From IMG/VR virus record IMGVR_UViG_3300043414_000203, positions 1-61,180 of that record: a DNA stretch of 61,180 nt; one strand, 5' to 3'. The position numbers and the translations under genes were made by a program. Each line of letters opens with the position of its first letter. Position 1 is the first letter of the stretch. The notes under the pieces are model-generated. The model did not search any database. It saw only the letters and a list, made by a program, of their open reading frames with translations, and had not been told where the DNA came from. The stretch is from a virus. Its lineage: Duplodnaviria > Caudoviricetes. Positions 32,315 to 32,461 of this stretch are shown here, piece by piece.

Positions 32315-32461
32315 CTAGTAACAGTTAGTTGTACAGCTACTGCCGTAGCAGCATGTAGTACAGCTAGTGCAATGGCCTTGATTACAGTAAGTGTTGTATG
32401 TGCATGATGCGTAAGCCATAGATGCTGCGCTGATTGCCCAAGCGGCGATTAAATATTTCAT
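32315..32461 (-). CDS. Secreted cysteine-rich mini-peptide (48 aa, 8 Cys)
   Basis: Manual translation MKYLIAAWAISAASMAYA-SCTYNTYCNQGHCTSCTTCCYGSSCTTNCY*; ATGA overlap with upstream gene; RBS AAGGAG. Confidence 0.8.
   Translation of the reverse strand: MKYLIAAWAISAASMAYASCTYNTYCNQGHCTSCTTCCYGSSCTTNCY

Follow-up and report, generated by a model that had tools for sequence, protein, structure and literature searches.

Llp of phage T5 is a small phage envelope lipoprotein that blocks further infection. Little in phage genomes is as poorly understood as the small exported proteins, which gene callers often overlook. Another described case is T4 Spackle, which the available part of a published account (PMC7677548) presents as an early, periplasmic exclusion protein. 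Here we describe a 48-codon gene (32315–32461, minus strand) in a complete 61,180-base virus record, IMGVR_UViG_3300043414_000203, the whole of which was analysed and is called the window below. Its product is very probably an exported mini-protein, its cysteines point to a ladder of disulfides across a three-stranded sheet, and the gene comes and goes between phages as a mobile accessory cassette. The best overall explanation that we can offer is a stable, envelope-directed phage peptide that is made early and serves, most plausibly, in superinfection exclusion, a reading to which we give an even chance.

The window peptide consists of an 18-residue hydrophobic leader that ends in A-Y-A, MKYLIAAWAISAASMAYA, followed by 30 residues that contain eight cysteines and one CC pair, SCTYNTYCNQGHCTSCTTCCYGSSCTTNCY. 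This is exactly the product named in an earlier note on this DNA (hereafter the original prediction); the gene, to which that prediction assigned no strand, lies on the minus strand, begins with ATG and closes with a TAG stop at 32315–32317. The peptide ATG (32461–32459) and the TGA that ends the 290-aa nuclease gene upstream overlap in an ATGA, and the Shine-Dalgarno sequence AAGGAG (32467–32472, minus strand) stands 5 nt upstream of it, within the 3' end of the nuclease gene, an arrangement that bears out the proposed translational coupling. The junction at the nuclease/peptide start, GGAGAAGTCATGAAA, recurs in relatives. At the other end, the TAG stop overlaps a GGAGGA site, which serves the following small open reading frame (ORF) and stands 9 nt ahead of its ATG (32305). 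The peptide gene is single-copy in the 61,180-base genome.

A back-translated pattern scan of viral contigs recovered 31 loci that encode relatives with 49–96% identity. The reading frame is open in all 31, and a Shine-Dalgarno-like site precedes the start in all 31. Our codon analysis used 30 equal-length copies (the window and 29 loci), which comprise 22 distinct nucleotide versions; loci L031 and L032 were excluded because they are one codon longer. Among the 22 versions every third codon position varies (48/48), as against 26/48 first and 28/48 second positions. Over 231 pairs of peptide genes the proportion of synonymous differences (pS) is 0.74, which is saturated, and that of nonsynonymous differences (pN) is 0.19; for the leader, the ratio of the two substitution rates (dN/dS) is ~0.18. 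We are as good as certain that the ORF at 32315–32461 is a real phage gene, and it is under strong purifying selection. Public gene callers did annotate homologues, as 'hypothetical protein' where they were named. An antisense 90-aa ORF (32135–32407, plus strand), which lies over the peptide gene, a 52-aa ORF and the start of the gene for an ERF-family protein, was considered and read as a shadow; nothing supports it.

A word-indexed search of a 5.8-billion-protein set returned seven homologues, and a profile search of 1.84 billion representatives returned 172 proteins (clusters) at E≤1e-3, ten of them at E≤1e-10. Nearly all of the 172 are 45–60 aa long and have the same architecture, in which a leader ending in A/V-[YW]-A is followed by one (sometimes zero to three) residue, a core and the stop. 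The core consensus is C-T-T-x-T-x(3-5)-[ND]-G-[RK]-x3-C-T-T-C-C-x(4-8)-C-x-T-x-C-[FYN]. The mature peptides are 31 aa long at the median, contain 21.5% Thr and 19.5% Cys, and carry a net charge of 0 or +1 in 109 of 132 cases, that of the window having neither Lys nor Arg. Counts of cysteine patterns given below were taken from all 150 matches listed (of the 172), aligned without selection. A second alignment, A2, served for structure prediction and was picked by hand; its 116 rows combine 111 of these listed matches with four viral loci and the window peptide, and it omits 39 matches, namely fragments, N-terminally extended calls and three rows with odd cysteines.

Annotated resources had little to say about this family. 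Pfam gave no family for the window peptide at E≤0.01 or at E≤10, and 25 families were listed for the 116 members; NCBIfam gave only leader-driven noise (E≥0.058); PHROGs had no match to the window peptide and scattered single matches among the 116 members; PADLOC had no match to the family; and the ESM Atlas returned only unnamed clusters at 0.87–0.88, below the trustworthy level. Run against the sequences of PDB chains, the family profile found chance matches only (E 2.3–7.1). Among cultured phage records, a megablast of 2 kb and a tblastn of the peptide (E≤10) gave no match, in a search where the BLAST low-complexity filter may have masked the peptide. Scans starting from two further family members found no viral locus for P0021 and matches to the leader only for P0088.

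The leader (32408–32461, minus strand, codons 1–18) has Lys at position 2, then an uncharged run, then A-Y-A, which fits the basic n-region, h-region and A-x-A site of a Sec signal; residues 3–15 are helical in the model, and signal peptidase I is predicted to cut after A-Y-A. The same features recur across the family, with Ala at position -1 in 109 of 116 members, Ala or Val at position -3 in 108 of 116, and, in 129 of 133, an AXA-type site that precedes the first Cys by one to three residues. What the original prediction had called a signal-like leader therefore looks like a Sec-type signal with an A-x-A site, and it is very likely that the peptide is exported via Sec and cut by signal peptidase I. 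A different fate for this region would be that of a lipoprotein anchored by its first Cys and acting like the receptor blocker Llp, and some observations do lean that way: the top match in BFVD (47% identical, TM 0.77), the one useful result of the fold search there and itself a family member, is named 'Lipoprotein', the Cys falls two residues after the conserved Ala, and 6/116 members give weak LPAM_1 matches at E ~0.1. A lipobox has the consensus [LVI][ASTVI][GAS]C, however, and a strict one occurs in only 11 of 133 members, the window having Y-A-S-C. The lipobox position -3 is mostly Y or W, and 55 of the 133 have something other than G, A or S directly ahead of the Cys, namely N, D, R, Q, E, K, H, Y, T, V or F. 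Moreover, C20 is lost only jointly with C37, in four clusters, so it is expected to be a disulfide partner and not a lipid anchor. We think that the name 'Lipoprotein' is wrong for the family, and a lipid-anchored product seems very improbable.

The pattern in which cysteines are gained and lost is a guide to the structure of the mature peptide (32318–32407, minus strand; codons 19–48). Six core cysteines (20, 34, 37, 38, 43 and 47 in window numbering) are present in 130 of the 150 matches listed; the extra cysteines 26 and 31 occur together in three, as in the clade of the window; C20 and C37 are jointly missing in four and C38 and C43 jointly missing in four; five are partial fragments. In A2 there are only four cysteine patterns, with counts of 102, 6, 4 and 4. 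Homologues with conserved cysteines, on which the original prediction depended, were thus found, at the 31 viral loci with open frames among others, but only six of the eight cysteines are family-wide and the other two are specific to the clade. Because cysteines are gained and lost in pairs, disulfides 20–37, 38–43 and 26–31 can be predicted directly and 34–47 by elimination.

AlphaFold2 models from two runs, with 25 and with 116 sequences, agree on a helical leader and the same three strands (19–27, 30–39 and 42–47), with a predicted local distance difference test score (pLDDT) of ~80–84 in the mature part. The strands are joined by two-residue turns at 28–29 (consensus N-G; Q28-G29 in the window) and 40–41 (G40-S41 in the window), and therefore the sum i+j of cross-strand partners should be 57 within the first hairpin and 81 within the second. 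By this deduction, in which the register comes from DSSP strings and not from coordinates, all four predicted cysteine pairs fit exactly. C37 and C38 are adjacent and would lie on opposite faces, so that a single-layer sheet would carry two staples per face, 20–37 and 26–31 on one and 34–47 and 38–43 on the other. Rows of conserved Thr residues cross the strands, one face bearing 21-36-45 and the other 22-35-46, and the most variable positions are 26, 27, 31, 33, 39 and 42. Taken together, the mature peptide is probably a three-stranded antiparallel meander held by a disulfide ladder in which the core cysteines pair as C1–C3, C2–C6 and C4–C5. Such a product, rich in Thr and Cys, nearly uncharged and without a hydrophobic core, should be very stable and resistant to proteases.

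The four disulfides of the original prediction therefore find backing in the paired gain and loss of cysteines, whereas its description of the peptide as knottin-like does not survive. The case for an inhibitor cystine knot with a fourth disulfide is one of outward resemblance: ~30 residues, six core cysteines in the order C-C-CC-C-C and, in the model, a small triple-stranded sheet. A cystine knot has the connectivity C1–C4, C2–C5, C3–C6. By that definition the covarying pairs C1–C3 and C4–C5 (hence C2–C6) are incompatible with a knot, and we favour a ladder because these pairs are the cross-strand partners in the sheet of both AlphaFold2 models. The loops of the family have lengths of 13–14, 2, 0, 4–8 and 3. 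No knottin stood among the rows listed by Foldseek against the PDB (no match at E≤0.001; best E 3.1) or by a wide fold search with VIA-align (best Z 3.7), although the lack of a match there counts as no evidence. Given the covariation, a knottin now appears hardly credible. The same covariation speaks against metal binding, the alternative raised in the original prediction, as pairwise changes that match cross-strand partners favour disulfides over a metal cluster of the metallothionein type.

A candidate that we considered and rejected is a toxin like the heat-stable enterotoxin STa, as the peptide has no Pfam match, no pro-region, a different cysteine spacing and inferred connectivity, and a beta-sheet model.

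Disulfide-rich mini-proteins are classic tight-binding inhibitors, and the peptide might accordingly inhibit a periplasmic enzyme of the host (a protease, lytic transglycosylase or nuclease) or a lysis component, in host takeover or the timing of lysis. This would suit the basic residue, R or K, that follows the conserved turn Gly in 92 of 116 members, and at one locus, L038, the peptide gene adjoins a GH108 endolysin gene. The window peptide, though, has His at this position and not Arg or Lys, and that lysis-gene neighbourhood is an exception seen at a single locus. There is no similarity to an inhibitor family, the one Prot_inhib_II match among 116 members (E 0.006) being read as noise, nor any fold match, and we hold an enzyme inhibitor to be distinctly unlikely.

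By the neighbours of the peptide gene, we sorted the 31 loci into seven kinds of neighbourhood, using ORF maps for L006, L008, L011–L013, L018, L022, L027–L030 and L032 and assigning the others by their near-identical flanks. In six loci the peptide gene lies, as in the window, between genes for a Cas4-like nuclease and an ERF protein. The most frequent arrangement, found at 11 loci, runs YqaJ-like nuclease, 281-aa protein, HTH_39, 88–93-aa protein, peptide, PDDEXK_15 and Anp1-like glycosyltransferase, and at eight loci the peptide gene follows that of an AlpA-type helix-turn-helix protein with a YqaJ-like nuclease ~1.8 kb downstream. The remainder comprise ERF, small protein and peptide (two loci); YqaJ, SSB and peptide (one locus); a peptide gene ~0.9 kb from a divergent ERF/YqaJ operon (one locus); and a peptide gene behind DUF3310 and convergent with a family A polymerase gene (two loci). 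Elsewhere, the gene is placed after an Anp1-like transferase gene (L050–L052 and L054) or between HNH and terminase genes on a contig of a Burkholderiaceae metagenome-assembled genome (MAG; L033).

L042 and L043 are close relatives of the window phage, with nucleases 86–89% and ERF proteins 84% identical, and in both the nuclease gene runs straight into the ERF gene, without the peptide gene and with a shared junction, GGAGAAG(T/G)CATGAAA. In this nuclease–ERF slot L003 and L047 have the peptide gene alone, and the window has it together with the 52-aa ORF. With high confidence we regard the peptide gene as a mobile accessory cassette, which is precisely present or absent between nuclease and ERF genes and occupies other slots in other phages. 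The original prediction placed the gene within a recombination operon; the link is real in the window, where the neighbours are a nuclease and an ERF protein, but it is not specific, the cassette being mobile, absent from two close relatives and found elsewhere in other phages.

The 52-aa basic ORF downstream of the peptide gene (32147–32305, minus strand; phrog_36554 at 1e-5), which abuts the ERF gene, is whole in the window, survives in part in L002 and is missing from L003, L047, L042 and L043; it is a second independently variable mini-gene in the nuclease–ERF slot.

Exchange seems to have reached inside the peptide gene as well. Relative to L023, the window has a leader 94% identical, a mature part only 57% identical and flanking genes 60–74% identical. 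Relative to L004 the mature part is identical at 27 of 30 residues and of the same eight-cysteine type, in a phage that, of 19 window proteins tested, otherwise shares only the Anp1-like transferase with the window. This suggests a mosaic gene that combines an L023-type leader with the mature part of otherwise unrelated phages by recombination within the gene. In one syntenic slot, that of L006 and L035, the flanking proteins are 61–76% identical and the peptides only 38–40%.

In the window phage the peptide gene comes second in a leftward operon, which runs from a divergent promoter-like region (33330–33670) in the order nuclease, peptide, ERF and small ORFs, then a sugar-related block and a RecA-dependent nuclease. 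A promoter-like site, TTGACT-17-TAGTAT (33355–33383, minus strand), lies just upstream of the nuclease gene; it is a consensus match only and a possible start of the operon. The first gene (32458–33330, minus strand) encodes the 290-aa PD-(D/E)XK (Cas4-like) exonuclease (phrog_2139 at 9.6e-53; PF12705), and the ERF-family single-strand annealing protein is encoded at 31464–32150 (minus strand; PF04404 at 1.9e-26; phrog_2324). Being the second gene of this operon, the peptide is therefore expected to be made early, a timing that we take from position.

The sugar-related block (23012–29345, minus strand) encodes a GT10-like fucosyltransferase domain, a GT2 protein, an Anp1-like transferase, a DegT aminotransferase, a thiamine pyrophosphate (TPP) enzyme divided between two ORFs, and an NAD epimerase; it could serve the modification of surface glycans or of DNA, and is absent at the same place in relatives L023–L025. 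At 24645–25880 and 25658–26890 (minus strand), the TTG listed as the start of the TPP-enzyme ORF gives an overlap of 223 nt with the DegT gene; as residue 75 is the first of the TPP_N domain, translation probably starts further downstream. Within this block the gene for the Anp1-like glycosyltransferase (26887–27669, minus strand) is 4.6 kb from the peptide gene; in other lineages homologues 45–69% identical to it lie 0.2–1 kb from peptide genes.

Such an Anp1-like homologue was found at L004–L008, L012, L018–L022, L035–L037 and L050–L054. None was found in L002, L003, L009–L011, L013–L017, L023–L034 and L038, and the transferase occurs without a peptide gene in several loci, L042, L043, L055 and L058 among them (each with 10 kb of flank upstream and 4.6–10 kb downstream of the transferase). 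The linkage of peptide and transferase is recurrent, not obligate; an obligate pair was considered and rejected, each occurring without the other. These data bear on the idea that the peptide is a modified one, a precursor of the kind of ribosomally synthesized and post-translationally modified peptides (RiPPs) or a glycosylated product, or else a metallothionein-like chelator. The composition, so rich in Thr and Cys, would agree with modification or metal binding, and for modification there is the proximity of the transferase in three types of lineage. Against this, many peptide loci have no transferase and several transferase loci no peptide, no modification enzyme is conserved with the peptide gene, whose neighbours differ between lineages, and the leader has the character of a Sec signal and not of a RiPP leader. 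Together with the covariation that counts against a metal cluster, this makes a modified or metal-binding peptide a slender prospect.

The most reasonable explanation of these observations, in our opinion, is the following. The 18-residue leader would route the peptide through Sec, and signal peptidase I would cut after A-Y-A, at A18. The 30-residue product would then fold oxidatively in the periplasm of a Gram-negative host into the four-staple, three-stranded antiparallel sheet. Made early in infection, the peptide would act as a small, rigid binder of a component of the envelope or of an incoming phage, its specificity perhaps lying in a surface formed by the variable residues of strand 1, the turn and strand 2 and by the 40–42 loop. 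Such a binder might shut out superinfecting phages in the manner of T4 Spackle or T5 Llp, to neither of which it is related. A binder is the best fit because the peptide appears to be early, exported, very stable and near-neutral, with a fixed scaffold and a variable surface, and because its gene is freely gained and lost. On the analogy with these proteins, a role in superinfection exclusion or as an envelope binder is nonetheless a tentative proposal, and we would not call it probable. All three roles named in the original prediction, superinfection exclusion, receptor blocking and signalling, are plausible candidates.

Several points weigh against this proposal and should be read with it. 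Export and the cleavage site are derived from motif statistics, one family member bears the automatic name 'Lipoprotein' in BFVD, and no RNA run is among the sequencing runs listed as containing the region. A Gram-negative host is suggested by two MAG matches (Burkholderiaceae and Chitinophagia) and by relatives of the nuclease gene. A single cysteine is lost in three of the 150 matches listed (P0091, P0122 and P0135), and P0008 is irregular. The confidence of the AlphaFold2 models is moderate, with no residue at pLDDT 90 and a predicted template modelling score (pTM) of 0.37–0.38, and the near-neutral charge of the peptide points to no target. Lastly, the gene is absent from close relatives and therefore dispensable, which fits exclusion but fits any accessory role equally well.

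An extracellular rather than a periplasmic site of action deserves particular consideration. In that case the periplasm would serve only as a folding compartment, and the peptide would be an effector released at lysis, such as a bacteriocin-like inhibitor, a deterrent of grazers or a diffusible signal between infections. Extreme stabilisation by disulfides would suit life outside the cell. The phage looks lytic, a scan of 59 ORFs having turned up no integrase family, and the peptide would thus be set free at each infection. Bacterial genomes rarely carry the family: scanning 185,579 species genomes with narrow patterns from the window's subfamily gave two loci, both in MAGs, and in the family of the Burkholderiaceae match 8 of 401 genomes had a match at E≤1e-4, with the full cysteine framework at only two of the six matching loci inspected. 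Secreted phage signal peptides do exist, AimP being an example named in the available part of a review of phage small proteins (PMC11323111). But the window family is neither cationic nor amphipathic in the manner of membrane-active peptides, most of its members having a net charge of 0 or +1, no gene for immunity, an exporter or a receptor is conserved beside the peptide gene, and expression from an early operon would be unexpected for a product needed only at lysis. We consider a released effector unlikely.

Returning to the periplasmic binder, a wider version of the proposal is that these peptides form a new class of periplasmic 'mini-binders', in which a disulfide-ladder scaffold with hypervariable strand and loop positions is swapped as a cassette among phages of freshwater Gram-negatives, the mature module at times even apart from its leader, and plugs an envelope receptor or entry channel against rival phages. 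This version we find doubtful, though worth stating. A bolder sub-variant would have the Thr-rich faces glycosylated by the co-travelling Anp1-like transferase. Exclusion factors or other envelope binders, if that is what the peptides are, would reveal how phages compete in fresh water and would offer a very small, rigid and naturally diversified binding scaffold. Even without a measurable effect, the gene is a clean case of cassette exchange at gene boundaries in phage early operons, and a family of at least 172 sequence clusters without a curated model has yielded a clear predicted disulfide map from sequence data alone.

Some features of the window stand apart from these questions. An exact 127-nt direct terminal repeat at 1–127 and 61054–61180 agrees with the label 'direct terminal repeats' of the record, and the sequencing runs that contain the region in full are all labelled freshwater metagenome. 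A 44-nt repeat, 84% identical, has one copy ahead of the nuclease operon, within the divergent promoter region (33414–33457), and another at the end of a small-terminase-like gene (46982–47025); the two may act as a common regulatory element. The 2061-aa protein encoded at 16012–22197 (plus strand), surrounded by virion and ejection genes, has LPD38 and ddrB-ParB domains and, in PHROGs, weakly matches the N4-type virion RNA polymerase (1.6e-17). A 42-nt coding motif occurs three times in neighbouring late genes (57771–57812, 58202–58243 and 59307–59348), its copies being 76–81% identical to the first.

The literature that we searched contains no description of the peptide family, the motif search having matched DNA primers only, and the available part of the review of phage small proteins (PMC11323111) is silent on cysteine, disulfide, periplasm and signal peptides. 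Family, ladder topology and cassette behaviour alike thus appear to be undescribed, whereas small exported disulfide-rich peptides and phage accessory genes are already known kinds. Among described proteins, T4 Spackle (gp61.3) is, in the available part of its account (PMC7677548), likewise the product of a small early phage gene with an N-terminal export signal and a periplasmic location, which for the window peptide is a prediction. The analogy would be functional only, as we found no relationship of sequence or fold, and the window peptide, all-beta in the model and apparently stapled by disulfides, has a third of the size of Spackle. With proteins of the T5 Llp and Cor type, the peptide shares that it is small, phage-encoded and, as we propose for it by analogy, active in exclusion at the envelope. 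These proteins are lipid-anchored through a lipobox Cys, whereas the window family lacks a lipobox in all but a few members and its first Cys behaves as a disulfide partner.

Two groups of cysteine-rich peptides invite comparison on the side of structure. Peptides of the heat-stable enterotoxin and guanylin type are made with a Sec leader, and their short, Cys-rich C-terminal product has three disulfides and, behind its last Cys, an aromatic residue; in each of these traits the window family, with three predicted core disulfides, is like them. It differs in that it has no pro-region, and neither the search with the window peptide, which gave no Pfam family, nor the 25 families listed for the 116 members brought up one of this type; we do not regard the two as related. 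Protegrin, tachyplesin and the theta- and alpha-defensins are strongly cationic eukaryotic peptides made with propeptides. They too are short beta-sheets without a hydrophobic core in which cross-strand disulfides join neighbouring strands, and in this respect they resemble the predicted ladder; the window family differs from them in being near-neutral, in its three strands with staples on both faces in the model, and in being made by phages with a plain Sec leader.

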